Part shown: piece after piece, positions 11,011 through 51,114 of the stretch
How positions within the stretch are numbered: position 1 is the stretch's first letter
Layout of the letters: the number at the start of each line of letters is the position of its first letter
DNA from: a phage
Direction: 5' to 3' (one strand)
Length of the DNA stretch: 64,000 nt
Assembly (NCBI GenBank): GCA_025677605.1
Contig: GCA_025677605.1_4110.1
Made by a program: the position numbers and the translations under genes
The notes under the pieces: generated by a model
Told to the model about the DNA's origin: nothing
Seen by the model: the letters and a program-made list of their open reading frames with translations, nothing else
Databases searched by the model: none

Positions 11011-11694
11011 TTAATCAAAGAAGTTTGTATCAGGTAGTGTAGTACTACTAATGTTGGTTTGTGCACCACTAATAGAAGATGCAGTACTTGGATTACCGAA
11101 ACCAGTAACTTCATCACCGAATGCTTCACCGTTTGGACCCAACTTAGCACAACCATCTGGTTGAACAGTCATAGTAATAACTTGTGCTTCGCTTGAAGAA
11201 TAATCCCAATCACCAAAGTTGCTGGATTCAATAAAGCAACCCTGACAAACCCAAGTACTTAGAGTACCTTCAAAAAGGTTTGTTGCATTTTCGCTATTAG
11301 AACCATCTAGTTCTTGAATCCACATTTCAAATTTAAACTGGGAATCAGTCATACGTGATTCTTGACTATAGTAGTTGAATTCTTTACGCATTTGGTTGTA
11401 AAGTGCTTTTGCTGAAGCATTACCAACTGAATCACGGAAAGCAACTTCAATCGCATCCCAAGTATATTTGCCTTTATAGTGTGCGGAACTGTTATAACTA
11501 TGAACAGTTACGTTTTCATGCGATACAGATACTGCACCAACAGTGTTTGTATCTAGTGTAATCATGTTGCCATCATCATTGGCACCAAAACCAAAGAAAA
11601 TTACACGGAATTTATATTTTGCTTTTGGTTGTTTCATTGAAATACGACCACCACCAGCAAGCGGAACGCCATATCGATCTAGCATAGTAGCCAT
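11011..11694 (-). CDS. tail tube protein (227 aa)
   Basis: Immediately downstream of the sheath gene; size and position typical of a myovirus tube protein; strong RBS AGGAGAA before ATG at 11694. Confidence 0.6.
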   Translation of the reverse strand: MATMLDRYGVPLAGGGRISMKQPKAKYKFRVIFFGFGANDDGNMITLDTNTVGAVSVSHENVTVHSYNSSAHYKGKYTWDAIEVAFRDSVGNASAKALYNQMRKEFNYYSQESRMTDSQFKFEMWIQELDGSNSENATNLFEGTLSTWVCQGCFIESSNFGDWDYSSSEAQVITMTVQPDGCAKLGPNGEAFGDEVTGFGNPSTASSISGAQTNISSTTLPDTNFFD

Positions 11695-11840
11695 TAATTA
11701 ATTCTCCTATTAGGAAATGAGATCTTTATATTATTTATAAAAATTAACATACTTTATGTAGTACTTAATGATATGTTTTATCTATAGGGAACCAATCCAT
11801 ATTAATACAATATGTGTACTGGAATTCACCAGTATATAGC

Positions 11841-12011
11841 TTAAACCTTACACCGAACTGACCATCTGCCATTTGTATAAGCAGAAAAATCACTCACAAT
11901 ACCCACATCTTTTAATACTTCCATTAAGGCTTCTATAAGATTTTGGGCTTCTTCTTGTGATTCTGAATTAAAGGCCAATTCTTGCAGGATACTTTTAATT
12001 ATTTCGTCCAT
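11841..12011 (-). CDS. small hypothetical protein (56 aa)
   Basis: Unlisted ORF (below track size cutoff): ATG at 12011 with GAGAGGGA RBS, in the 395-bp gap between sheath and tube genes. Confidence 0.3.
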   Translation of the reverse strand: MDEIIKSILQELAFNSESQEEAQNLIEALMEVLKDVGIVSDFSAYTNGRWSVRCKV

Positions 12012-12054
12012 ATATCCCTCTCACCTTACTGAATATATGGTATTTAATTTAAAC

Positions 12055-12081
12055 AATAAAAAAGGGAACCATATGGTTCCC
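12055..12081 (-). terminator. rho-independent terminator after the sheath gene
   Basis: Perfect 7-bp stem GGGAACC/GGTTCCC with ATAT loop, 8 nt after the sheath stop, followed by UUUUUU on the minus strand. Confidence 0.6.
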
Positions 12082-39845: not shown

Positions 39846-39866
39846 TAGACAGGCTTAATTTTTTTA
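39835..39866. terminator. bidirectional rho-independent terminator
   Basis: Perfect 9-bp stem AAGCCTGTC/GACAGGCTT with AATA loop; T-runs on both sides; overlaps the tail-fibre stop codon. Confidence 0.6.
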
Positions 39867-42605
39867 ACTCCAACGAGTACCAGATTGTGATGGTAACCCA
39901 GAACTAGCTGGGATAGCAGAACCACGATTGTAGGTACTTGGGCGGTATAGCAAGAATCTGGACACTTTTTCAGACTCGATTGATGCAATACCATTAGCAT
40001 CAGTTACTATCTTACCAATGTAGGTTGATGTCATAGTTTCTGATAATTGATATAGTGATATCTGATACGAAGCTGTAGATGTACCTCTATCCATAACCGC
40101 ATATATGTAGAATGTTGAATTATCTGGTGTAGTACTTATGGTAGATAAGTCTATCATAGTCGGTGGTATCTTTGCAAACTTTCCACCCAAGAAAACTGGT
40201 ACTTCTTGTGAAAAGTACACGTTGAACCCTTGTGCCACATCCTGTGAAGCAACAACTAAGTACTGTGATATCGTTTCATTACCAGATATTAGTTTATCCA
40301 TATCTGCTTCAGTAGTACCACATACAGCAAAAACTGATTTAGTTTGATAATCGTTTTTGTTCATTTGGTAATATCCAAACCCAATCCCTGGAATTGTACC
40401 TATATCAAATTGTGCGTTTGAAATATAAGTTGTTTCCATATATCGTTGACTTGAAATAATACCATTTTTCACTTTAGCAATCATGTTAGGATAACGAGTC
40501 CAACCTGGGGTATCAATGCCATATAAAATGTTCACACCTAAGTAGTTAAAACCACTAAACTTAGCAACAGTCATACCAGCCCAACGTTTGATCATTTCAT
40601 TTGGTGAAATTTGGAATGTATTCGTGATTGATGTATATCTTGCTGTATCAACACTAATACCACGTAAAATTATAGTACCACTTGTACCCAGTGCACTACA
40701 TGATATTTCGGAAAAAATAATATAACACACGTTGGTAGTACCGTTTAGTGCAGAAGTGACTGCAATAGATTTAGAATATGTAGTATCAGGTACATAATAA
40801 AAAACAGTTTTATGTTCAGTTATTCCAGTCAATCCGGCTTTAGCAACGGCATTATAACCTATACCTGATAATGTAGTTCCTGAAATTTCATATCTATCAC
40901 TGTTAAAGTCCATTGTAACAGGGTCGAATTTTCCATAAGCTGGTTTATCGATACCTTCTATTAAAGAAGATCCATAAGTGCTGACATTTCCATTGGCATC
41001 AACCAATGTTACCATACCTGCATATTTGTAATCAGTACTTAAATAGTGTCTATTACCTGATGGTGCAAAACCATTCATTGTGGTATTTTGTTCCAAGTTT
41101 TTATAACTATAAGTTGGATTCTCACCTATTTCAGTAAAAACTGTACTATCATAACCATAAGAAATTCCATCAGCAGTACCAGAACATGCAACAAGTATCT
41201 TACGTTTATCTACGAAACGAACACCTATTAAGTTTTCACCGACAGGGGAGCCATAAACTGGCATTACTTCTACACGTTTTAAATTACTACCAGTACGTGT
41301 TTTAGCAACCCAACTATCATAAGGTGTACCAGAAACTTTGTATGTTTGTACTGCATAGGTCGGCATGGATGACCATCTTGCTTTGGTAGTGAAAACAAAA
41401 CCATCAGAAGTTTGACAGATTGAACCATAGTTACCAAGTGCACCATCATAAAACCCTGTAAAGTTTTCCATATTGATTGAAAACGGGTTACTCACTGTTA
41501 TACTACCAGTTGATGTATTAGCTGATACTCTGATTGGACCACGTTCAGAACCGTCAAGTGTCATTGTTTTAGTACTGATATCATATGTAAAGCTGATACC
41601 AAGTGCATATACACCAGATGTTTTTGTTGCGGTAAAGACACGAAACCCTGGATATATCGCTACTCTTATTTTTGTACCATCAGGACTGATAACTGCTTGT
41701 GTATTAAATGCGTTATTTTCCCAATAATCTATTCTGGAAACACCATTATCATATGCTATTAGTGCATCACCACCTGAACCCAACACTGAATAACTATCAT
41801 AAACACGAATATTATTAGATGCAGTGTATGTTACATTTCTTATAGTTCTTCCTGAATAACCACTAATCTGTGTTACTGTCGAAACTGAACCAGTATTAAA
41901 TGCAGTTAAAGGTACTGTGTATATGATAAATGCACACCCGCGAACACTACTCAATACACTTGAATCCATACACCATATATAAACTGAATCATTTACGATG
42001 TGTGCATAGATTGGTTTATTTGTTATTGCTGTTTTTGGAATTCTGCAATGTTTGTGTGCTGATTCATTTAATGTTTCATTTGTTAATGTAAGGTAGTATG
42101 ATGCTCTATCAGTTGATTCCCAAAATAGTAATTCATATGCATTTGACCCATAAAATTCATAAATGTAATCAGTGCTTGGTAGCACAGAAGGTCTATACAT
42201 CGTGTTGGTTGTAATTATATTATCTTGAGTTAGTGTTTCTATATCTCTTATATTTTTAATATAAGCATAATAGTAACCATACGAACTTCCATTTGTACCT
42301 GCACGTAAAATTACACCAGTACCATCATTTTCAATGATACAAGGTTGCATTATTTTTGCAAATGAAAAGGAAGAAGCACCTTCAAATGTACCGTTAATAC
42401 TCATCGGTAGGTAATCTTGATCACCTACCCTTGAAACTGGAAGCATATCAAACATCTGATCTACTTCCGCTTTGTCATAATATTGGTAAGTGATTTTACC
42501 AGCAGAATCAGCAGGGAATCCATTAAAGGAACGTAATGCATACTTTCCATTAATTTTCAAATTCCCTAGTATTTCTGCGTTTCCTATAATTCGTCTCGAA
42601 GCCAT
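39864..42605 (-). CDS. tail fibre protein (about 913 aa)
   Basis: N-terminal and C-terminal domains paralogous to the 894-aa fibre; C-terminal approximately 190 aa shared with two other genes and ending in a Trp; ATG at 42605 with AAAGGAA RBS. Confidence 0.6.
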   Translation of the reverse strand: MASRRIIGNAEILGNLKINGKYALRSFNGFPADSAGKITYQYYDKAEVDQMFDMLPVSRVGDQDYLPMSINGTFEGASSFSFAKIMQPCIIENDGTGVILRAGTNGSSYGYYYAYIKNIRDIETLTQDNIITTNTMYRPSVLPSTDYIYEFYGSNAYELLFWESTDRASYYLTLTNETLNESAHKHCRIPKTAITNKPIYAHIVNDSVYIWCMDSSVLSSVRGCAFIIYTVPLTAFNTGSVSTVTQISGYSGRTIRNVTYTASNNIRVYDSYSVLGSGGDALIAYDNGVSRIDYWENNAFNTQAVISPDGTKIRVAIYPGFRVFTATKTSGVYALGISFTYDISTKTMTLDGSERGPIRVSANTSTGSITVSNPFSINMENFTGFYDGALGNYGSICQTSDGFVFTTKARWSSMPTYAVQTYKVSGTPYDSWVAKTRTGSNLKRVEVMPVYGSPVGENLIGVRFVDKRKILVACSGTADGISYGYDSTVFTEIGENPTYSYKNLEQNTTMNGFAPSGNRHYLSTDYKYAGMVTLVDANGNVSTYGSSLIEGIDKPAYGKFDPVTMDFNSDRYEISGTTLSGIGYNAVAKAGLTGITEHKTVFYYVPDTTYSKSIAVTSALNGTTNVCYIIFSEISCSALGTSGTIILRGISVDTARYTSITNTFQISPNEMIKRWAGMTVAKFSGFNYLGVNILYGIDTPGWTRYPNMIAKVKNGIISSQRYMETTYISNAQFDIGTIPGIGFGYYQMNKNDYQTKSVFAVCGTTEADMDKLISGNETISQYLVVASQDVAQGFNVYFSQEVPVFLGGKFAKIPPTMIDLSTISTTPDNSTFYIYAVMDRGTSTASYQISLYQLSETMTSTYIGKIVTDANGIASIESEKVSRFLLYRPSTYNRGSAIPASSGLPSQSGTRWS

Positions 42606-42615
42606 ATATATTCCT

Positions 42616-43206
42616 TTACCATTCTGTCCCACTATTCACATCTGGTGTACCAGAACTGATAGGGATAGCTGAACCAATTTTTGTAGCACTTACTCTGAAG
42701 TCGTCAAATCTTGACACTTTATTTATACTGACCCCTGTAATGCCATCTGGGAAAACTGTCAGTTGTCCTATGTACATATTAACACTACTTTCAGGGCGTT
42801 GAGTTTTAGAAATGAGGTAGTCAGCTACCCCAACATCTAATATAACATATACATAATGTGTTTCAATATTAGTACCAGTAACTCCTGGGTCCGTTATTGT
42901 TTTAGCAGGGAGGGTATAAACCGCTCCCGCCATGAACAATGGTAATTCTTTACTGAAAGTCAATTTGAATCCAGCGGCAGTAATACCTAATGGTTCATTA
43001 CTGTAAAGTGAACCAAATTGTGATAACGGAAAGGAACTGGTAATGTAATTCACATCATCTGTACTCATGAGTGGTACATCAACATTCCCATTAGCATCAG
43101 CTTGATACACATTACCAGAACGATCAGTTATCGTGGTCCCAGTATTTTTTCCTTGTGATTTAACGGAAGCATACGCTTCCACATCAGATCTAAATTTATA
43201 AGCCAT
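42616..43206 (-). CDS. tail fibre C-terminal-domain paralogue (196 aa)
   Basis: Aligns with the last approximately 190 aa of both long fibre proteins (…KVSRFDDFRV…SSGTPDVNSGTEW); GGAG RBS. Confidence 0.5.
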   Translation of the reverse strand: MAYKFRSDVEAYASVKSQGKNTGTTITDRSGNVYQADANGNVDVPLMSTDDVNYITSSFPLSQFGSLYSNEPLGITAAGFKLTFSKELPLFMAGAVYTLPAKTITDPGVTGTNIETHYVYVILDVGVADYLISKTQRPESSVNMYIGQLTVFPDGITGVSINKVSRFDDFRVSATKIGSAIPISSGTPDVNSGTEW

Positions 43207-43216
43207 ATTATCTCCA

Positions 43217-45901
43217 TTACCAATTCACATTACCAGAACTTGAAGGGAACCCAGAACTAACTGGGAAGGAACTTCCGGCAGCGTCGAATGATGAACCAAA
43301 CAGGTCTAAACGCGAACGTTTTGCTATATTAATTTCGGTTATTTGTAAATTATCAGTTTTCACTGTACCAATCCAGAATATTGAATGAGTTTCAGCTAAT
43401 TCAGTTGTTGATATATGATAGTTTGCAATACCCTGTACTAATTTAATATACACATAAAATGTAGTATTGGCAGGATTTGCTTTCACAGTTGTTAAATCTA
43501 TATTTGATATTGGTAATGTATAGTGTTTACCGGATATCAGTACTGGTGTCTCTTCGGTGAAGTATATAATAAAACCTTGAGCAACATCTTGGGAAACAAG
43601 ACATATAAATGGATTTCCTTTATCAGTCCATGCATTATAATCCGCTAATGTTGTACCATATGTTCTAAAAATTGTTTTGTTATTATTATCTATACTTTGA
43701 AGAATACCAAACCCAATGTTAGGTAAAGCGAATGGTTGACCATCTAATGCATAGATCGGACGTGCACCAGCTATATGGAAATTATTAAATTGGGCTGTCG
43801 CTTTATCCACTGTAGCACGGAAAAATGGAGAGTTTGTATTACCAACTGTATTAAAGAAACCAGGAATACCACCACCAATGAAGTAGAAAGAACCCGCATC
43901 ATATATAGTAATACCAATACTTCCACTATCAAGATGATATGCGGTATCTGTTTTGTAATCCCCAGCTTGAACACTTTCATGTACTAAACGTTTGAACGAC
44001 CATGTTGTAATATCACCAGTTCTTGTATTGACATTCAATTCAACAACTCGAATATATAGACCACGGGCTGTAGTAGATGCTGCAAGAACACCAAAAACAG
44101 GAATATCAGTTTGTTGTGGAACAAATACAGATAATGTTTTTATTGATGCTGGTGATATATTCCATGAACTAGCAACTTTAGCAAATTCGGAATTTCTAAT
44201 GGAATTCATTATATCTTGTGACATACTGATTGTACCATTATTCAGTACATTACCTTTATAATCAAAACTAATTGGCGTTGATGTTCTATTATCAGCCACC
44301 AAAACACCACCATTAGTCGTTACCGTTGAACCAGAAATTGAACTTATAAAAATTCTAGATTCTGGTGTAGTTATAAACGCTCGGTCTGGTGTTGGTTCAT
44401 AGCCAAGAACATTACCATAGTCTAGAGACTTAAATGTAAAGTTCGGGGTAGCTTTATGTACAGCATAGGATGGATAAAAACGACCATCACCTGAACGTCT
44501 TGAATATTGCTTAGTACTGTTATTTGGTAATAACTCCACACCCACTTGGAATGAACCAACTGCTGAACCAAATCTTGGTGATACGACACCATTAATAAAA
44601 TCAGTTGCCGATACACTTCTAACATCCATTAAATCAAATAATGATTTGGGTGGGTATTTTGCATATGATATATTCAATGCTTCTGCAAGGTTTGGTGAAA
44701 ATGAGCAAAACGCATCCCCAGTTGATGGAACATAGCAATAATTACTGAAAATGTTACGTCCACCTGCGTGAAGATAAAACGGGTCAGTTGTTAAACATGG
44801 ACCAGATTCATTCATGCTTGTACCATTATCATAAACAGCAACTGGTGTAGTAGTTGTCATATTATCCAATGCACATTGCTTAGTAGCAATATCAAAAGTC
44901 ATACTAAAACTGTGTTGTGGTCGTATATCATATCTGCCGTTAGTCATCCACATATCGCCACATAATCTAAATTTAAATGTAGTTGTACCTGATTTCTGTG
45001 CAACATATAAATCTGGATCTGTCATATAAATACCAAACCCAATAATACCACTTGGAATTAAAACGTATGGATTATCATTGGTATTTGTTGAATTTATTTT
45101 CATAGTTGGAACAATATTGTCATCATATACCATTGCATTATAAAAAGTTCTTGTGGCCCAACCAGTAATTCTAGTAACACTATAAGTACCACCACCTGGG
45201 TTATTACTTGGACTAAAAGTAACTTTAACCACTGATATTTTAAGAGTATTGCTTGGTGTATCTAAACTGAAAAAGTATAATGCACCATCTTCTGCACGAA
45301 TAACAAATTGTACTTCACCAATTGGCCTAACTGAAGCATAGTCATCAATTAAAATTCCGGTATGCATTGCATCGTTCATTGTGCCATTATTAACGGATAC
45401 AAAAAGTTTATTAATTGAACCATTACTTGCCATACCACATGTAATATCATCACTACATGAATATAAATGGTATGCATAATAATCACCAAAATAATTTGGT
45501 TTATATGCACGAGTAGTATTAACCATACGACTTGTATTTGTTGTACCAACCGCCTGGGTCATATAACTATAATAAACCCCTTGTGTACTCCCATTTGTAC
45601 CAGGACGTAGCATTACTAAAGTGTTATCATCTTCCAAAAATAATTTTGTATTTCTGGATTTAGTATTTTCTGAAGAACCAACTGTTGTACCATTGACACC
45701 AGCAGGTAGATAGTTTTGTGTACCATAACGAGAAATGGGTAACATACCAACCATTTCCAGCATATCATCTTGTGTATATGCATCTATTGTGAGATTGCCA
45801 TTTTCATCAAATACGTTATCATTGATGCTCTGAACACTTCTCTTACCTTTGACTGTTACATTATGTGTAACATCAATGCCACCATATATTTTCTTTGCCA
45901 T
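43217..45901 (-). CDS. tail fibre protein (894 aa)
   Basis: Paralogue of the 913-aa fibre; 5' UTR AAAGGGATATAT-ATG nearly identical to that of the paralogue. Confidence 0.6.
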   Translation of the reverse strand: MAKKIYGGIDVTHNVTVKGKRSVQSINDNVFDENGNLTIDAYTQDDMLEMVGMLPISRYGTQNYLPAGVNGTTVGSSENTKSRNTKLFLEDDNTLVMLRPGTNGSTQGVYYSYMTQAVGTTNTSRMVNTTRAYKPNYFGDYYAYHLYSCSDDITCGMASNGSINKLFVSVNNGTMNDAMHTGILIDDYASVRPIGEVQFVIRAEDGALYFFSLDTPSNTLKISVVKVTFSPSNNPGGGTYSVTRITGWATRTFYNAMVYDDNIVPTMKINSTNTNDNPYVLIPSGIIGFGIYMTDPDLYVAQKSGTTTFKFRLCGDMWMTNGRYDIRPQHSFSMTFDIATKQCALDNMTTTTPVAVYDNGTSMNESGPCLTTDPFYLHAGGRNIFSNYCYVPSTGDAFCSFSPNLAEALNISYAKYPPKSLFDLMDVRSVSATDFINGVVSPRFGSAVGSFQVGVELLPNNSTKQYSRRSGDGRFYPSYAVHKATPNFTFKSLDYGNVLGYEPTPDRAFITTPESRIFISSISGSTVTTNGGVLVADNRTSTPISFDYKGNVLNNGTISMSQDIMNSIRNSEFAKVASSWNISPASIKTLSVFVPQQTDIPVFGVLAASTTARGLYIRVVELNVNTRTGDITTWSFKRLVHESVQAGDYKTDTAYHLDSGSIGITIYDAGSFYFIGGGIPGFFNTVGNTNSPFFRATVDKATAQFNNFHIAGARPIYALDGQPFALPNIGFGILQSIDNNNKTIFRTYGTTLADYNAWTDKGNPFICLVSQDVAQGFIIYFTEETPVLISGKHYTLPISNIDLTTVKANPANTTFYVYIKLVQGIANYHISTTELAETHSIFWIGTVKTDNLQITEINIAKRSRLDLFGSSFDAAGSSFPVSSGFPSSSGNVNW

Positions 45902-45946
45902 ATATATCCCTTTTATCTAGATATCCATAGTGTATTTATAATAGTA

Positions 45947-45970
45947 TAAAAAAAGCACCCAAAGGGTGCT
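45947..45970 (-). terminator. rho-independent terminator
   Basis: Perfect 7-bp stem AGCACCC/GGGTGCT with AAA loop, followed on the minus strand by UUUUUUU; 8 nt after the small ORF stop. Confidence 0.6.
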
Positions 45971-45977
45971 TCTTCAT

Positions 45978-46137
45978 ATTAACCGCCGTGTTTAGAAAAT
46001 TCAACTGCTCTTAATTGTTTAAGTGCTTCTTTTCTGGTTGGGTGACGACCGAGAACTTTCTTCCCTGTGTGGTCAGTAACAACCCACTCATTTCCACGTT
46101 TCTGTATCTTTTCAGAAATAATATCAAGATAACGCAT
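45978..46137 (-). CDS. small hypothetical protein (52 aa)
   Basis: Unlisted ORF with strong RBS AAAGGAG before ATG at 46137; followed by the terminator. Confidence 0.35.
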
Positions 46138-46603
46138 AATCTACTCCTTTACGAAGAATACGTTGATTATTAGAGCCTCTAAATGGTAATTCTAAATTCT
46201 TTTCTTCAAGAATAAATTTACCATCAACTAATACATCAATGTACTCTAGTATTGCGGAGGCATGATTATTTATTATTTCCTCTAAAGTATAACCACTCCA
46301 GCACCAAATATCTTTATTTGGATATTTTTCTTTTACTACTTTACATAACTCAATAACAGTACTGATATTCTTTGGCATCAATGGATCACCACCTAAAAGG
46401 GATAATCCTTGTACATATGGCTTGTTAAGTTCATTCAGGATGATTTCAACTGTTTCAGTACTGAATACTTCCCCACTGCGATAATCCCATGCTTTTTCGT
46501 TGAAGCATTCTTCACATCCGTGGCTACACCCTGAAACAAAAAGGGAGCATCTAACTCCCTCCCCATTAACTAAATCATCCTTGATTATCGTTTGGTAATT
46601 CAT
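46124..46603 (-). CDS. nrdG: anaerobic ribonucleotide reductase activating protein (radical SAM)
   Basis: Radical-SAM cysteine motif CSHGCEEC near the N-terminus; 159 aa; in the nrdD cluster. Confidence 0.85.
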   Translation of the reverse strand: MNYQTIIKDDLVNGEGVRCSLFVSGCSHGCEECFNEKAWDYRSGEVFSTETVEIILNELNKPYVQGLSLLGGDPLMPKNISTVIELCKVVKEKYPNKDIWCWSGYTLEEIINNHASAILEYIDVLVDGKFILEEKNLELPFRGSNNQRILRKGVDYALS

Positions 46604-46910
46604 CTAATATTGCACTCACTATTTCCACAAGAACATCACCATGACATGATTTTGGCTTACAAAAGCACCCAAGACGCTTCCCAGCCAATTCAAGTAGTTC
46701 TTCGATAGTAACCTCACCATTTTCAATTCTTTGGATAAGATACTCTCTGAACTTCTCAATCGACTCTTCTCGTGTCGGAACTATAAACTCTGCCTTTGTT
46801 TGTTTGTCATTAATGTGGGTAAATGGATTTCCCCATTTGGACCCACGACCAATATACACATCATATGGTTCTTTATATTTGTTAACTACAATTGGTTTTA
46901 AGTCCATCAT
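46575..46910 (-). CDS. conserved hypothetical protein with G-x-W-G-N-P-F and C-x-C-x-P-x-x-C-H-G-D motifs
   Basis: 111 aa; motifs [12 protein letters not shown] and [14 protein letters not shown]; sits between grcA-like and nrdG. Confidence 0.45.
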
Positions 46911-47269
46911 AGACCTTTAGTAAAAGTACGATTGATTACATCATCTTGTTGTTCTTTTGTTAGTGAATTGAAACGAACTGCATAACCACTAACACGAATT
47001 GTAAGTTGCGGATACTTTTCTGGATTATTTTGTGCATCAATGAGTTGTTCTTTAGATAGAACATTTACATTCAAGTGCTGACCACCTTCAATATTCGGTG
47101 CGTGTTGAATTTCCACATCACGCAGTACCTCGCCATCAAAAGTACTCAAAAGTACTTCATCATCTTCGGAAAAGGTCTTTGATACAATAATACGTGCAAT
47201 ATCATTTTCTATTAGCATGATAGTTCCACGGTGCTCACCTGACATGACTTGTTTACCTTGAATTGACAT
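46907..47269 (-). CDS. grcA: autonomous glycyl radical cofactor (GrcA/YfiD-like)
   Basis: C-terminal half ([11 protein letters not shown]…[32 protein letters not shown]) closely matches E. coli GrcA as recalled, including the RVSGYAV glycyl-radical motif. Confidence 0.85.
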
Positions 47270-47278
47270 AATATCTCC

Positions 47279-49084
47279 TTACATGTGTTGTATACGTTGA
47301 ATAACTTCAGCTTGTTTACCTTTATTGAACGGGCGACTATTTGGTGCACTAAGATATCCTGATACTCTGCGAATAACCGACATTGTACGTTCATTGCGGT
47401 TGTCACATACCGGACAATGGAAACCATTTTTATCTACACTAAATTCACCCTCAAAATCACATTCAAAACACTTATCGACCTTCTGATTAATACCAAAATA
47501 TGGAATTTTAGTATAAGCAAAATTTATTAATGTTTCAAGTGCTTGTATATTATTAGCTAGATTTGGTGTTTCGACATAGCTAATATTACCACCATTGCTT
47601 AGATAAGCAAAGTTTTCCTCATAATCCCATTTAGCAAAAGGTGTACTTTCAACCCATACTGGTTGATGGAATGAGTTAGTGATAAAGTCACGTTTCAGTA
47701 CTGAAGGATGTTTTGCCTCAATACAACGTGCAAATTTATAACATAGTGATTCTGCTGGTGTACCGTAAAGACTAAATGCAATGTTACTCTCTTTTTTGAA
47801 TTCATCACATTTTGCTTTCATGTAGTTCAAAATACTCATACAGAACTCTTTACTAATTGAACCAGTGAGGATCTCTGAGCACTCAGATAACCCAACATAA
47901 CCAATACTGATACTAGCATAACCATTATAAAATAAATGGTCAATAGTGTCTTCAGGATCAAGACGTGCAATCGCACCTTCAGCGAAAAGTATAGGGTTTT
48001 GTTTTGCCTTTGTACCTTTTAAACGTTCTACACGGTTCATCTGTGCTCTGTAAGCAATATTCATGTGCTCGTCAATCTTATCAAAGAAATCACCATCAGA
48101 CTCACTCTCAAGAGCAATTAGTGGTAAGTTGATAGACACAACGCCAAGGTTGAATCTACCATTGTATTTTTCTTCTCCTTGTATATTTTCCCATTTCCCT
48201 AAGAAACTTCTGCATCCCATAGGAGTAACAGGAATAGTTGTGCTTCCAGTAACTTTTTGATTCAAAGGTACTGATACAAAATCAGGATAGATGCGTTTAG
48301 CTGCACAACGCATAGCTAATTGTTTTAAGTCATAATTACAATCAGTACTGTTCATATTAATTCCATCCTGAAGAAAGAATATTACTTTAGGGAATACTGG
48401 AGTAATCTTATCTTTACCTAGTCCATTTTCATGTACTTTCAAATATTGTTCAGTGATTAGTTTTTCAAATTTAGATGTACCTAATCCTAAACTCAAAGAA
48501 ATGAACGCAGCCTGACCATTAGTACTGATCATTGAGTTTGTTTGATATAGAATTGTTTGACAACCGTCATAAACTTCCTTACGCAACTCATCTTCGATGA
48601 ATTCAGTACTAAGATTGTATTTCTTTTGTTTTTCTAGAAGTTTATCCCATGACTTTTGTACATATGGTGCAAGGCCAGTGTCAATGTGAGCCAACGACTG
48701 ACCACCGTACTGTGAACTTGCCACAGCCTGAACAATCTGTGTTAGTACTGTACAAGCTACCCCAAAGCTTTTTGGTTCTTCAATCTTGGCACAACCAATC
48801 ATGAAGCCATTAGCAAGCATATCAGGATAATTAACTAAACAACAGTTTGTTAATGGGCTAATGTAATAGTCTAAATCATGAATATGACCGTAACCTTCAT
48901 TATGCCACTTCATCAATTCATCAGGAATCACATCTTGGGAATAATGTTTAGAAAGAATACCTGCCAATAAATCACGATGTGTATTAACACATTTAGCGTC
49001 TTTATTTGCATTTTCGTTTGTTAAATCAGCGTTACTCTGGTTGAGGAAGTTAGTTACGTCCGTATATAATTTATCTATTTGCAT
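47279..49084 (-). CDS. nrdD: anaerobic ribonucleoside-triphosphate reductase (class III)
   Basis: 601 aa; C-terminal zinc ribbon (CFECDFEG…CPVCDN) followed by the glycyl-radical motif RRVSGYLS. Confidence 0.9.
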   Translation of the reverse strand: MQIDKLYTDVTNFLNQSNADLTNENANKDAKCVNTHRDLLAGILSKHYSQDVIPDELMKWHNEGYGHIHDLDYYISPLTNCCLVNYPDMLANGFMIGCAKIEEPKSFGVACTVLTQIVQAVASSQYGGQSLAHIDTGLAPYVQKSWDKLLEKQKKYNLSTEFIEDELRKEVYDGCQTILYQTNSMISTNGQAAFISLSLGLGTSKFEKLITEQYLKVHENGLGKDKITPVFPKVIFFLQDGINMNSTDCNYDLKQLAMRCAAKRIYPDFVSVPLNQKVTGSTTIPVTPMGCRSFLGKWENIQGEEKYNGRFNLGVVSINLPLIALESESDGDFFDKIDEHMNIAYRAQMNRVERLKGTKAKQNPILFAEGAIARLDPEDTIDHLFYNGYASISIGYVGLSECSEILTGSISKEFCMSILNYMKAKCDEFKKESNIAFSLYGTPAESLCYKFARCIEAKHPSVLKRDFITNSFHQPVWVESTPFAKWDYEENFAYLSNGGNISYVETPNLANNIQALETLINFAYTKIPYFGINQKVDKCFECDFEGEFSVDKNGFHCPVCDNRNERTMSVIRRVSGYLSAPNSRPFNKGKQAEVIQRIQHM

Positions 49085-49210
49085 TTCACATTCCTTGTAT
49101 GTTATTCGTTTGGGTGAATTTATTTAACTTCAACAAAGAGCATTATAGCCTCATATTGGCCTTTTTCTCTTGACCTAAATCAAGGAAAAGTGCAATTGAT
49201 TAAGTACTGT

Positions 49211-49240
49211 ACAAACACAAAAAGCACCACTTGGGTGCTT
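49211..49240 (-). terminator. rho-independent terminator
   Basis: 7-bp stem AAGCACC/GGTGCTT, followed on the minus strand by UUUUGUGUUUGU; between CDS 49319-49504 and nrdD. Confidence 0.45.
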
Positions 49241-49318
49241 TTATAGAATAGACAAAATAACAACTGACCAGATTAGCATAACATATAAATTGCAATTGCA
49301 CTGCAACCAATGAATAGT

Positions 49319-49504
49319 TTAATTAGTCTCATCTGGACTCCATGTAATAGTTACAGTAAATGTACCTTCCTGGAATCCATACTCATCTTGTGGAATTTGA
49401 GCAACTAATGGATTGAATCTGGAATTAAACGCTTCATGTACATCACGTTGGATATCACAGATACTTTCACCATCATATTCTTTTTTAAAAATTTCAATCT
49501 GCAT
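49319..49504 (-). CDS. hypothetical protein (61 aa)
   Basis: ORF in track. Confidence 0.35.
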   Translation of the reverse strand: MQIEIFKKEYDGESICDIQRDVHEAFNSRFNPLVAQIPQDEYGFQEGTFTVTITWSPDETN

Positions 49505-49904
49505 TTAAACGTAATGACCCTCGTATTGTCTCTGGATAACTGTCTAATAGATCGATTAGCCTATTAAACGCATGAGTACTGATGAATGGATGTTTCTTCG
49601 CGAGTTCGATGCGTTTCTCAAAATCCATTAATGTAATCTCGGTTCTATTGAAACTACCTTTACGTCTGTACGTTAGTAAACGCTCTTTGTGTCCATTAAG
49701 CTGGAAATCAAAATATGTTGTTGCAGTATAATCACTATCATCACTGATAGGCTTTGAAATATCCAGATTATACGTAGATCCAAATGCGAAAAAGAAACCA
49801 CCATCTTCCAATGGGATATCTTTATCGCTTAGATTGAAATCTGTTTCATCACCTAGTATATCAAATATCTTTCTACTTAATTTTAGAAACTCATCTTCTA
49901 ACAT
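49494..49904 (-). CDS. hypothetical protein (136 aa)
   Basis: ORF in track. Confidence 0.4.
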   Translation of the reverse strand: MLEDEFLKLSRKIFDILGDETDFNLSDKDIPLEDGGFFFAFGSTYNLDISKPISDDSDYTATTYFDFQLNGHKERLLTYRRKGSFNRTEITLMDFEKRIELAKKHPFISTHAFNRLIDLLDSYPETIRGSLRLNAD

Positions 49905-49906
49905 AG

Positions 49907-50128
49907 TTATTCCTCGTTTTCATTTGGAATACAATATACAAATACTAAATGCTTAAAGTGATCAGTACTGGAATATAATGCCAATTCATGTAATGGGAAA
50001 TTGGTATCTTTAAATTTACCATTTTCGTATATAGTTATTTGTAACGAATGTTTTGGCTCAAAAATATAATAGTACATTATTGATTCACCAAACAGTACAG
50101 TATGGTGCTGATATCGTTCAATTTTCAT
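49907..50128 (-). CDS. hypothetical protein (about 73 aa)
   Basis: Track ORF trimmed to ATG at 50128, which overlaps the deaminase stop (ATGA). Confidence 0.4.
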   Translation of the reverse strand: MKIERYQHHTVLFGESIMYYYIFEPKHSLQITIYENGKFKDTNFPLHELALYSSTDHFKHLVFVYCIPNENEE

Positions 50129-50493
50129 GTATGGATAATCTCTTTTACCCCGTACTCCTGAATTGCTAATGTACAAATCTCACAAGGTTTTGCTGAAACT
50201 GGAATTCCATCTTTACTTACACGAGCGATAAGAAGAGTATGTACTTCAGCACGAGCAGCAAGAAGACACGAAATTTCAGCGTGTAAAAATTCCCCTTGAG
50301 GGCGACCAGCACGAATTGCAAAGCCTTTCTGCTTAGGGTGAGTCTGTGTGTAAGAGTTGGTACGAGTAGCCAGTACTCGACCTTTCTTATCCAGTGCACG
50401 AGCAATTACTCTATACCGTTTGTAATTGCCAACTTGTTCAATCGGCGGCATCTCACGGAGTTCTTCTACCAGTTTAAGCAATTTCGGGTTCAT
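50125..50493 (-). CDS. zinc-dependent nucleoside/nucleotide deaminase (CDA fold, TadA/dCMP-deaminase-like)
   Basis: HAE…PCxxC zinc-binding signature (HAEISCL … PCEICTLAI); 122 aa; ATGA overlaps on both sides. Confidence 0.6.
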   Translation of the reverse strand: MNPKLLKLVEELREMPPIEQVGNYKRYRVIARALDKKGRVLATRTNSYTQTHPKQKGFAIRAGRPQGEFLHAEISCLLAARAEVHTLLIARVSKDGIPVSAKPCEICTLAIQEYGVKEIIHT

Positions 50494-51107: not shown

Positions 51108-51114
51108 GATATCC

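Follow-up and report, generated by a model that had tools for sequence, protein, structure and literature searches.

A jumbo phage of the genus Asteriusvirus probably deploys its anaerobic ribonucleotide reductase together with a repair protein for a host enzyme. The best explanation of the sequence is that nrdD, grcA, a DUF4326 gene, and nrdG form an FNR-switched unit, in which GrcA would repair host pyruvate formate-lyase (PFL) and PFL would provide formate for NrdD. This genomic context gives a concrete, testable reason for a phage to carry grcA, namely, PFL formate for a formate-type NrdD. The reductase gene and the repair gene appear to share a transcript in these jumbo phages, made from a promoter that reads host FNR. 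If true, this would be a clear case of a lytic phage using a global regulator of its host to deploy an oxygen-specific metabolic module. Such a case would bear on how phages replicate in the gut and on their therapeutic use against E. coli, Klebsiella, and Salmonella there, and it would provide a defined system for the study of DUF4326/NrdA.1, a very common phage protein.

Phage-encoded GrcA is an already known kind of protein. The gene itself is no discovery: work on T4 Y06I in 2001 made phage GrcA known, and the gene is already annotated in relatives. The new elements are the conserved FNR box, the linkage of grcA to nrdDG in two lineages, the formate rationale, and the assignment of the DUF4326 protein to the NrdA.1 family.

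Operon structure

The DNA analyzed (the window) is a 64-kb stretch with ~99% identity to Escherichia jumbo phage A4 (Asteriusvirus), in which the grcA gene is already annotated. It contained the following features.

49220..49242, minus strand: intrinsic terminator-like hairpin AAAAGCACCCAAGTGGTGCTTTT with a T-rich tail, from the terminator scan; ends the upstream transcription unit
49170..49183, minus strand: FNR-box-like palindrome TTGATTTAGGTCAA, one mismatch to TTGAT-N4-ATCAA (9/10 half-site positions)
49142..49147, minus strand: -10 hexamer TATAAT, 22 nt downstream of the FNR box; TAT.AT invariant in 7 phages
49113..49127, minus strand: conserved block TTAAATAAATTCACC, presumed 5' leader; TAAATAA invariant in 7 phages
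47279..49084, minus strand: nrdD, class III (anaerobic) ribonucleotide reductase, 601 aa
46907..47269, minus strand: grcA/vs.6-type autonomous glycyl radical cofactor, 120 aa, Gly95
46575..46910, minus strand: DUF4326 protein (T4 NrdA.1 family), 111 aa
46124..46603, minus strand: nrdG, radical-SAM activase of NrdD, 159 aa
45979..46137, minus strand: orf52, a 52-aa ORF, the last gene ahead of the terminator
45946..45971, minus strand: intrinsic terminator AAGCACCCTTTGGGTGCTT followed by TTTTTT; closes the operon

The genes lie on the minus strand in the order nrdD, grcA, DUF4326 gene, nrdG, orf52. They are tightly packed, and an intrinsic terminator is present on each flank. The upstream hairpin is kept in the alignment of relatives. 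A gap of 9 nt separates the nrdD stop from grcA, which is preceded by a GGAG ribosome-binding site of its own. The grcA stop and the start of the DUF4326 gene share 4 nt (ATGA), nrdG overlaps the DUF4326 gene by 29 nt, and orf52 overlaps the end of nrdG by 14 nt. The four open reading frames of the initial annotation are all present on the minus strand with the coordinates it gave, and the 9-nt gap agrees with its placement of grcA (CDS 46907-47269) immediately beside nrdD. The genes from nrdD to orf52 probably form one transcription unit in the Asteriusvirus phage, running from terminator to terminator behind an FNR-dependent promoter. No match to orf52 was found in the Pfam or NCBIfam profiles. 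Its counterpart in A4 is annotated as A4_494, and K64-1 (gp667) and the Erwinia phage each have an ORF at the same position.

Ribonucleotide reductase and activase

NrdD matched Pfam NRDD (E = 7e-163) and NCBIfam NF006732, the E. coli-type equivalog, with 766 bits against a cutoff of 657. It is identical to E. coli NrdD at 268 of 598 residues and has no ATP-cone. Its glycine loop is RRVSGYL, and Gly576 aligns with E. coli G681. The Zn ribbon (C539, C542, C557, and C560) aligns with the four Zn cysteines of E. coli. C81, M289, and C291 correspond to E. coli C175, M382, and C384. The roles of the thiyl Cys and of the Cys/Met pair of the formate mechanism were reportedly set out by Wei et al. in 2014. 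By score and by residues, NrdD is classified as a class III enzyme of the formate type (E. coli/T4-like), and it is predicted to use formate. NrdG matched TIGR02491 with 199.7 bits (cutoff, 126.1) and contains the cluster motif C26-x3-C30-x2-C33 (CX3CX2C).

E. coli and T4-type NrdD use formate as reductant (PMC4493059). A 2026 review noted that PFL formate could be consumed by a formate-dependent class III ribonucleotide reductase. The linkage of grcA to nrdDG may thus be explained by PFL, which makes the formate that a formate-type NrdD uses as reductant.

Identity of the GrcA-like protein

The 120-aa protein is assigned from its sequence to the phage Vs.6/Y06I clade of autonomous glycyl radical cofactors. 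Such cofactors are free-standing proteins of ~120 to 127 aa with a glycyl-radical domain as the C-terminal half, a duplicate of the PFL C-terminus (PflB ~693 to 759). Residues 61 to 101 matched Pfam Gly_radical (E = 1.9e-17), and the best NCBIfam match was TIGR04365 GrcA (E = 2.9e-37). The score against this equivalog model was 127.8 bits, under the curated cutoff of 170. T4-genus Vs.6 (153.3), the K64-1 protein (135.8), and a T5-like copy (118.3) also scored under 170, and E. coli GrcA scored 233.9. TIGR04365 is tuned to bacterial N-termini. Phmmer searches against PDB sequences matched the protein to E. coli PflB residues 669 to 758 (E = 4.5e-30) and to E. coli GrcA 6OWR (E = 5.7e-30). BLASTP against E. 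coli GrcA gave 62% identity over 99 aa (E = 7e-39). The Pfam, NCBIfam, phmmer, and BLASTP matches agree with the initial annotation, which had reported a spare glycyl-radical protein of the GrcA type, encoded alongside nrdD and nrdG.

The last 60 residues are identical to PflB 700 to 759 at 48 positions and to E. coli GrcA, in its structured C-terminal half, also at 48. The protein has the RVSGYAV motif recognized by PFL activase, in which the radical glycine is Gly95. A 13-residue stretch is the same in the phage protein, GrcA, and PflB. This region had been described earlier as near-identical to host GrcA and was found to be fully identical over the 13 residues. The proposed alignment to host GrcA showed the RVSGY glycine to be conserved, and the profile search confirmed the relationship to GrcA. 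The N-terminal ~25 residues are unrelated to those of E. coli GrcA, and the host gene is monocistronic and outside any nrdDG operon.

T4 Y06I (vs.6) is among the closest known systems. RB32 Vs.6 also contains 120 aa and is 61% identical over 118 aligned residues (E = 3e-48). The N-terminal half is identical to RB32 Vs.6 at 25 of 58 residues versus 16 of 60 for E. coli GrcA. Both phage proteins contain the phage-type N-terminal motif Q-I/V-L/M-x-G-x-H-x-G-T-I ... ARIIVSKTF and a PFL-type C-terminal radical domain with RVSGYAV. They differ at the C-terminus, which is SLTKEQQ in A4-type GrcA (as in PflB) and SLTPEQQR in Vs.6 (as in E. coli GrcA). They also differ in location. In the T4 genus, the gene is found in the e-vs-regB region, distant from nrdD and nrdG and with no FNR box nearby, whereas the A4-type grcA comes second in the nrdD-nrdG operon, downstream of a candidate FNR-type promoter.

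Client of the phage GrcA

T4 Y06I was shown in 2001 by Wagner et al. to repair oxygen-cleaved host PFL, and its radical was installed by E. coli PFL-AE (as cited in PMC8683613). The validated spare parts for PFL are T4 Y06I and E. coli YfiD (PMC13450708 and PMC8683613). The likely client of the A4-type GrcA is also host PFL and not NrdD, because its C-terminus is of the PFL type (48/60 to PflB), its match to NrdD is found only around RVSGY, and it has no Zn ribbon.

The alternative is that GrcA is a spare part for phage NrdD, providing a new glycyl-radical loop after oxygen cleavage at Gly576. We consider this very improbable. It would fit the position of grcA, which adjoins nrdD and shares an operon with nrdG, the recurrence of the linkage in two lineages, and the RVSGY common to the GrcA-like protein and phage NrdD. 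Spare parts for other glycyl radical enzymes have also been speculated on (PMC8683613). However, alignment to the NrdD C-terminus, a check proposed with the initial annotation, showed similarity around the glycine loop only, with 14 of 36 residues in common (pairwise E = 0.016), against the 48 of 60 shared with PflB. At E ≤ 0.01, phmmer matched no ribonucleotide reductase in the PDB; all matches were to PFL, GrcA, or PFL-like glycyl radical enzymes. GrcA contains no cysteine and so would be unable to replace the Zn ribbon that precedes the NrdD glycine loop. The PFL-type C-terminus is unchanged in phages with grcA far from nrdD. The RRVSGYL loop is found in NrdD of relatives with and without grcA, and a correlation of the loop with grcA presence was rejected on fEgEco12, which has the same loop and no grcA. 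As of 2026, the known spare parts are limited to formate lyases among the glycyl radical enzymes (PMC13450708).

NrdD was rejected as the main client on the loop-level similarity, the missing Zn ribbon, and the missing ribonucleotide reductase match. The extreme version, in which GrcA would additionally patch oxygen-cleaved NrdD, is nearly excluded by these comparisons. The initial annotation had left the client as either NrdD or a host enzyme. The host enzyme is favored by the PFL-type radical domain and the kinship to Vs.6, and the NrdD half of that proposal is disfavored by its loop-only similarity.

Candidate FNR-dependent promoter

The nrdD operon appears to be switched on by the host oxygen sensor FNR from a candidate class II promoter upstream of nrdD. 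The start is placed near 49135 from the -10 element, and the center of the box would then lie at about -41.5, which is class II geometry. With an alternative -10 element, TAAATA at 49126-49121, the FNR box would lie near -62. In FNR-activated promoters, the site is mostly at -41.5 ± 4, and host yfiD is FNR activated from a site at -40.5 (PMC3688515). Host yfiD, focA-pflB, and nrdD belong to the FNR regulon (PMC3688515). The FNR boxes of host grcA are visible in locus L004. The candidate resembles the E. coli FNR class II promoters (yfiD, focA-pflB, and nrdDG) in its TTGAT-N4-ATCAA-type box ~41.5 nt upstream of the inferred start, its lack of a -35 element, and its consensus -10 element. It differs from them in that it lies on a lytic jumbo-phage genome and would drive phage genes. 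The literature search found no description of an FNR class II-type promoter for phage genes of this kind.

TTGATTTAGGTCAA is the sole intergenic box with ≤1 mismatch in the window. An FNR box was present at the same place in 7 of 7 annotated relatives and in 11 of 11 IMG/VR jumbo relatives. In the alignment, both half-sites are kept in phages of Escherichia, Klebsiella, Salmonella, and Erwinia, and the flanks diverge. Among 81 phage nrdD loci, a box plus a -10 element in the -150 to -40 window was observed 14 times versus 0.07 expected, with the expectation derived from the rest of these loci. The IMG/VR nrdD loci were collected with an alignment query; a query with a single NrdD protein gave 1 locus.

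No FNR boxes were found near grcA in T4-like, T5-like, or Slopekvirus phages. Putative FNR control is a trait of the nrdD operon and not of grcA generally.

Other candidate elements were rejected. The T4-like loci contain an FNR box at -266/-227 upstream of nrdD, which is inside coding sequence. In L047 and L058, two IMG/VR contigs, this T4-like box encodes VDFDQ within an N-terminal extension of NrdD. The extension is probably an ATP-cone. The TTAAATAAATTCACC block was rejected as a general phage promoter, being present as a single copy in the window. The FNR boxes of host grcA are visible in locus L004.

Distribution and origin of grcA

GrcA homologues were retrieved from 1585 of 50,697 phage records. 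Linkage of the gene to nrdDG was seen in two phage lineages, and the gene order differs between them. In Rak2-like jumbo phages, it lies between nrdD and nrdG. In contigs L047 and L058, it follows nrdG (nrdD-nrdG-grcA). T4-like and T5-like phages have grcA away from nrdDG and without an FNR box, so function does not depend on the linkage. The FNR-box nrdD operon is kept, and grcA is missing, in most Asteriusvirus relatives and in several other jumbo ones, which indicates that GrcA is dispensable for NrdD function.

This patchy distribution, with a close copy in only 4 Escherichia Asteriusvirus records, would suit grcA as a neutral or decaying passenger, acquired from the host or another phage and placed beside nrdD by accident. 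The dS values between A4 and ph0011 could be read in the same way. They were 0.48 for grcA, far under the 1.45 of nrdD and the 1.87 of the DUF4326 gene, and hint at a separate recent exchange. A passenger is nevertheless a very unlikely explanation. The frame is intact and has its own ribosome-binding site, and the dN/dS of 0.12 to 0.24 indicates purifying selection. grcA is found at the same position in phages infecting four host genera, and its 73 to 75% aa identity is similar to the 72 to 73% of NrdD. Recent capture from the host was rejected because DNA identity to E. coli grcA is just 71.6% over 176 nt.

Proposed mechanism

In an oxygen-poor host, the active [4Fe-4S] FNR dimer would bind the box near -41.5 and recruit sigma-70 RNA polymerase. 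Such FNR-dependent recruitment would mean that the operon is expressed when a class III ribonucleotide reductase can work. NrdG would then put the radical on Gly576 of NrdD, and NrdD would make deoxynucleoside triphosphates with formate as the reductant, as shown for the family. Traces of oxygen would cleave host PflB at Gly734, and phage GrcA would dock in place of the lost C-terminal radical domain. The docked GrcA would gain a glycyl radical on Gly95, installed by host PflA in the published cases, and PFL activity would be restored. These rescue steps were shown for T4 Y06I and E. coli YfiD, and we infer them for A4-type GrcA. Restored PFL may sustain the production of acetyl-CoA and ATP and, above all, the supply of formate for NrdD. 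The DUF4326 protein would be a coexpressed accessory.

A variant of this mechanism has GrcA repairing host PFL with a radical installed by phage NrdG rather than host PflA. It is compatible with the best explanation and differs from it solely in the activase. We consider it unlikely. In its favor, Munch has grcA abutting or overlapping nrdG (ATGA overlap), and contig L047 has the gene ~10 nt past nrdG. NrdG is a homologue of the activase PflA and also matches the PFLA model (E = 2.7e-09). The NrdD loop of the jumbo clade has the RVSGY pentapeptide of GrcA and PFL, and that of E. coli NrdD is RVCGY. Against this variant, T4 Y06I was activated by E. coli PFL-AE (PMC8683613), RVSGYL is also present in NrdD of relatives without grcA, and T4-like and T5-like phages have grcA away from nrdG. 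The wider reading is also unlikely: an FNR-switched anaerobic kit, complete in itself, in which NrdG activates both NrdD and GrcA and the formate supply is restored without host PflA.

DUF4326 protein

The 111-aa protein matched Pfam DUF4326 (E = 5.4e-25) with 88.3 bits against a cutoff of 25. It contains the motifs GSKWGNPF and CxCxPxxCHGD. The second motif is as in the initial annotation; the first had been given as GxWGNPF, and its spacing is GxxWGNPF. N28, P29, C82, C84, P86, C89, H90, G91, and D92 are invariant in 32 homologues. The protein had also been described as inserted between grcA and nrdG. A DUF4326 gene between nrdD and nrdG is the common Asteriusvirus state, and grcA is the rarer gene. 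Both genes are accessory across the wider clade.

Aravind's group predicted a phosphatase-like role for DUF4326 on ADP-ribose derivatives (PMC9503650). The AF2 model (pLDDT, 91.3) had no significant fold match in the PDB, and this search neither confirms nor refutes the prediction.

The protein is a member of the T4 NrdA.1 family and no peculiarity of A4-type phages. It is homologous to T4-like NrdA.1 (46% identity to that of JS98), and both are encoded beside ribonucleotide reductase genes. The neighbors are the class III genes nrdD and nrdG in the A4-type phage versus the class Ia genes nrdA and nrdB in T4-likes. A general association of DUF4326 with ribonucleotide reductase was only partly supported. 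It did not hold in 8 other contexts, and in most other lineages sampled the gene was not next to nucleotide metabolism genes. The association holds in T4-likes (td-nrdA.1-nrdA) and Rak2-like jumbo phages, and the gene lies beside thyA in Xoo-sp13.

Structure of the nrdD operon

The window carries an operon for class III ribonucleotide reductase (RNR; NrdD) and its activase (NrdG). It contains the following features.

47279-49084, minus strand: nrdD, 601 aa; Pfam NRDD 7e-163; E. coli-type NCBIfam equivalog, 766 bits (cut-off, 657)
46907-47269, minus strand: grcA-like gene, 120 aa; Pfam Gly_radical 1.9e-17
46575-46910, minus strand: DUF4326 gene, 111 aa; Pfam DUF4326 5.4e-25
46124-46603, minus strand: nrdG; TIGR02491, 199.7 bits (cut-off, 126.1)
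45979-46137, minus strand: 52-aa ORF, final gene of the operon; basic product MRYLDIISEKIQKRGNEWVVTDHTGKKVLGRHPTRKEALKQLRAVEFSKHGG; no family match
49242-49220, minus strand: intrinsic terminator hairpin before the operon
45971-45946, minus strand: intrinsic terminator with a T6 tail, after the 52-aa ORF

All ORFs of the initial annotation were found at their positions on the minus strand, with grcA directly beside nrdD as it had described. The gap between the nrdD stop and the grcA start is 9 nt and contains a GGAG ribosome-binding site. The overlaps are 4 nt (ATGA) for grcA and the DUF4326 gene, 29 nt for the DUF4326 gene and nrdG, and 14 nt for nrdG and the 52-aa ORF. The genes from nrdD to the 52-aa ORF are thus packed as a single unit. 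Phage K64-1 (gp667) and an Erwinia phage have a small ORF in the position of the 52-aa ORF, annotated in the latter as "minor tail protein."

Positions 45900-49600 were 99.4% identical to Escherichia phage A4 (ON286972.1), a 355-kb Asteriusvirus whose isolation host was E. coli LF82. Identity to other Rak2-like jumbo phages (ph0011, UE-S1, K64-1, and PBECO4-type phages such as fEgEco12) was 72-81%. The A4 operon genes are annotated as anaerobic ribonucleoside-triphosphate reductase, "pyruvate formate-lyase," DUF4326 domain-containing protein, and anaerobic NTP reductase. An 851-bp segment of A4 (11211-12061 of its locus, L001) is missing from the window at 51111, so the window represents a close relative of A4 and not A4 itself. 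The segment encodes A4_484, a hypothetical protein of 267 aa with a CxxC...C-rich N-terminal start.

Identity and client of the GrcA-like protein

The product of 46907-47269 is a GrcA homologue, which confirms the initial finding as real and correctly named. A phmmer search of PDB sequences retrieved E. coli PflB 669-758 (4.5e-30) and E. coli GrcA 6OWR (5.7e-30). The radical glycine, Gly95, is conserved, and the 13-residue glycine region, first noted as near-identical, is fully identical in the phage protein, GrcA, and PflB. Over the C-terminal 60 residues, identity was 48/60 to both E. coli PflB and E. coli GrcA and 48-52/60 to other phage copies.

The protein was first proposed to serve either the phage's own NrdD or a host enzyme; of the two, a host enzyme, probably pyruvate formate-lyase (PFL), is the one supported. 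Against the 48/60 for E. coli PflB and GrcA, the phage's own NrdD C-terminus was identical at 17/55 positions. BLASTP aligned the two phage proteins only around the glycine loop (14/36 identities; E, 0.016). PDB matches at E <= 0.01 were confined to PFL, GrcA, and PFL-like glycyl radical enzymes; none was a ribonucleotide reductase. NrdD has a four-cysteine Zn ribbon (C539/C542/C557/C560) before its glycine loop, whereas the GrcA-like protein is cysteine-free. NrdD is therefore unsupported as a client.

The protein is 61% identical over its full length to Vs.6 of the T4-genus phage RB32 (E, 3e-48). The two share an N-terminal motif that is absent from E. coli GrcA. T4-type phages have a single GrcA homologue, annotated vs.6, and Vs.6 should therefore correspond to T4 Y06I. 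The experimentally validated spare parts are Y06I and E. coli YfiD; both are activated by the PFL activase (PFL-AE) and restore oxygen-cleaved PFL (PMC8683613). A 2026 review still limits known spare parts among glycyl radical enzymes to formate lyases (PMC13450708). The PFL-type C-terminus, the kinship with Vs.6, and the lack of a Zn ribbon or an RNR match point to host PFL as the likely client. PFL repair has been demonstrated for the T4 orthologue, and the present protein would act by analogy.

The protein scored 127.8 against the NCBIfam GrcA model, below the cut-off of 170. RB32 Vs.6 (153.3), the K64-1 copy, and a T5-like copy also fell below it, and E. coli GrcA scored 233.9. The threshold mirrors bacterial N-termini, and a low score is no sign of function loss. 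Among jumbo-phage grcA copies, dN/dS was 0.12-0.24.

Candidate FNR-type promoter

Two elements lie upstream of nrdD.

49183-49170, minus strand: sequence resembling the box of the host oxygen sensor FNR, TTGATTTAGGTCAA, between the upstream terminator and nrdD; one mismatch to the consensus TTGATnnnnATCAA
49147-49142, minus strand: -10 element, perfect TATAAT, 22 nt after the box

With an assumed start about 7 nt beyond the -10 element, the box would be centered at about -41.5. This position is used in 19/23 FNR-activated E. coli promoters, and the host FNR regulon includes yfiD (-40.5), focA-pflB (-40.5), and nrdD (PMC3688515). The box is the sole intergenic one with at most one mismatch in the 64-kb window, and the sole one with a -10 element at such spacing. 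In an alignment of seven phages of Escherichia, Klebsiella, Salmonella, and Erwinia hosts, TTGAT, TCAA, and TAT.AT were invariant and the flanks varied; four of the seven had a perfect consensus box. Each of the 11 jumbo relatives in IMG/VR (NrdD identity, at least 69%) had the box, 90-103 nt upstream of the ATG.

We surveyed 81 phage nrdD loci from IMG/VR for the composite pattern (box, 21-23 nt, TAnnnT). It occurred 14 times between -150 and -40, whereas its frequency in the rest of these loci predicts 0.07 (Poisson P, ~2e-27, which overstates independence since related sequences were counted). It was absent from the T4-like nrdD loci of the survey. From these sequence features we infer an FNR-type promoter for the operon. 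A literature search found no paper on FNR control of a phage nrdD operon. The pattern also occurred in five non-jumbo IMG/VR contigs of 45-153 kb (L033, L036, L072, L075, and L077), 69-94 nt upstream of nrdD, and FNR-controlled phage nrdD may be wider than the Rak2-like group.

The jumbo relative L037 has a different promoter architecture. A perfect FNR box, TTGATTTATATCAA, lies about 130 nt upstream of nrdD and is followed by a terminator-like hairpin, ACCCCATTATTTGGGGTTTTTT, with no recognizable -10 element. A further block, TTAAATAAATTCACC (49113-49127, minus strand), is located after the -10 element and before the nrdD ribosome-binding site. It occurs once in the window, and seven phages from four host genera share its core, TAAATAA, without change. 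Candidate roles are a leader element, a second operator, and a T4-late-like promoter core (TAAATA).

Distribution and position of phage grcA

Phage GrcA is widespread, is already annotated in A4, and is a well-known kind of gene. Homologues were found by tblastn in 1585 of 50,697 phage records, among them T4-like (vs.6), T5-like, Slopekvirus, and jumbo phages. Many carry the label "autonomous glycyl radical cofactor," and phage GrcA was characterized in T4 in 2001 (cited in PMC8683613). Placement of the gene beside nrdD and nrdG is less frequent. The gene lies away from nrdD and nrdG in RB32 (between e and regB), the T5-like phage rutana (after a tRNA cluster), and Miro (among small early genes). 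It lies between nrdD and nrdG in the Rak2-like jumbo phages K64-1, Erwinia phage pEa_SNUABM_12, and Munch. The best tblastn matches in RaK2, Muenster, 7t3, and SE_PL were at or beside annotated nrd genes. Two contigs of the 81-locus survey (222,006 and 233,234 bp) have the order nrdD-nrdG-grcA, with grcA directly after nrdG and its PFL-type C-terminus kept. That two lineages link these genes in different orders speaks for a functional connection.

Gene orders in the clade, including IMG/VR and comparison loci (L numbers), were as follows.

nrdD-grcA-DUF4326-nrdG: A4, ph0011, UE-S1, K64-1
nrdD-grcA-nrdG: Munch
nrdD-DUF4326-nrdG: fEgEco12, L025, most Asteriusvirus records
nrdD-nrdG alone: L026, L030, L031, L037

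Both grcA and the DUF4326 gene are accessory in the clade. Among Escherichia Asteriusvirus phages, close DUF4326 copies (at least 80% identity) were found in about 43 records and close grcA copies in only 4. Between A4 and Klebsiella and Salmonella phages, amino acid identity was 73-75% for GrcA and 72-73% for NrdD. This similar divergence fits vertical descent with loss better than a recent insertion. Between A4 and ph0011, dS was 0.48 for grcA, about 3-4 times lower than for the flanking nrdD (1.45) and DUF4326 gene (1.87), which hints at a separate recent exchange or synonymous-site constraint.

NrdG, rather than host PflA, might activate GrcA, an arrangement compatible with PFL repair. In its favor, NrdD of the jumbo clade carries the RVSGY loop of PFL, and Munch and contig L047 have grcA directly next to nrdG. 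Relatives without grcA have the same loop, however, and we consider activation by NrdG improbable.

Formate connection

The phage NrdD has no ATP-cone and shares 45% identity with the E. coli enzyme. Residues equivalent to E. coli C175, M382, C384, and G681 are conserved, and we take them to mark the formate-using subtype; TPMGCRSF is identical. PFL is the cellular source of formate. Formate is the reductant of E. coli and T4 NrdD (PMC4493059). According to a recent review, formate-dependent class III RNR may consume PFL formate. From a formate-type NrdD and PFL as the formate source, we infer an explanation for the linkage of grcA to nrdDG. At low oxygen, host FNR would switch the operon on. 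NrdG would activate NrdD, and GrcA would keep host PFL running through oxygen transients. Rescued PFL would supply ATP, acetyl-CoA, and above all formate, which NrdD would consume. The new value lies in this operon context, where the conserved putative FNR-type promoter, the recurrent nrdDG linkage, and the formate connection give a specific testable hypothesis.

DUF4326 protein

The 111-aa protein between grcA and nrdG belongs to Pfam DUF4326. It has the 11-residue Cys motif reported for it and GSKWGNPF, which makes the other motif GxxWGNPF where GxWGNPF was first given. The protein collection contained 3312 homologues at E <= 1e-5. Matches by tblastn were found in 2292 phage records, including T4-like NrdA.1, which is encoded between td and nrdA. 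DUF4326 is thus an RNR neighbor in two lineages that are unrelated and differ in RNR class. In Xanthomonas phage Xoo-sp13, it adjoins thyA. DUF4326 genes had no such neighbors in Ackermannviridae, N4-like phages, Otagovirus, Certrevirus, Thalassavirus, Thermus P23-45, and two metagenomic giant contigs.

Neighboring genes

About 1 kb upstream of the operon is a gene of the dCMP/cytidine deaminase family (50125-50493, minus strand; Pfam E, 3.4e-07). The arrangement is kept in A4, K64-1, ph0011, and fEgEco12, and the Erwinia phage has a putative dCMP deaminase just upstream of nrdD. This conserved neighbor makes the locus part of a small nucleotide-metabolism neighborhood.

The T4-late-promoter-like octamer TATAAATA occurs at 45933-45940 and 42720-42727 (minus strand), just before two large genes of 894 aa (43217-45901) and 922 aa (39864-42632). 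It is not enriched within the window (6 matches versus 9.9 expected). The counterparts of both genes are hypothetical in A4, and positional neighbors are annotated as structural or tail genes in the Erwinia phage and K64-1. Three consecutive genes at 39864-45901 (minus strand) encode proteins of 894, 196, and 922 aa that are similar at both ends (N-terminal …NGK…S.N…DENG/SAGK… and C-terminal …SSG.P…G….W). Their resemblance suggests a paralogous set of tail fibers or receptor-binding proteins.
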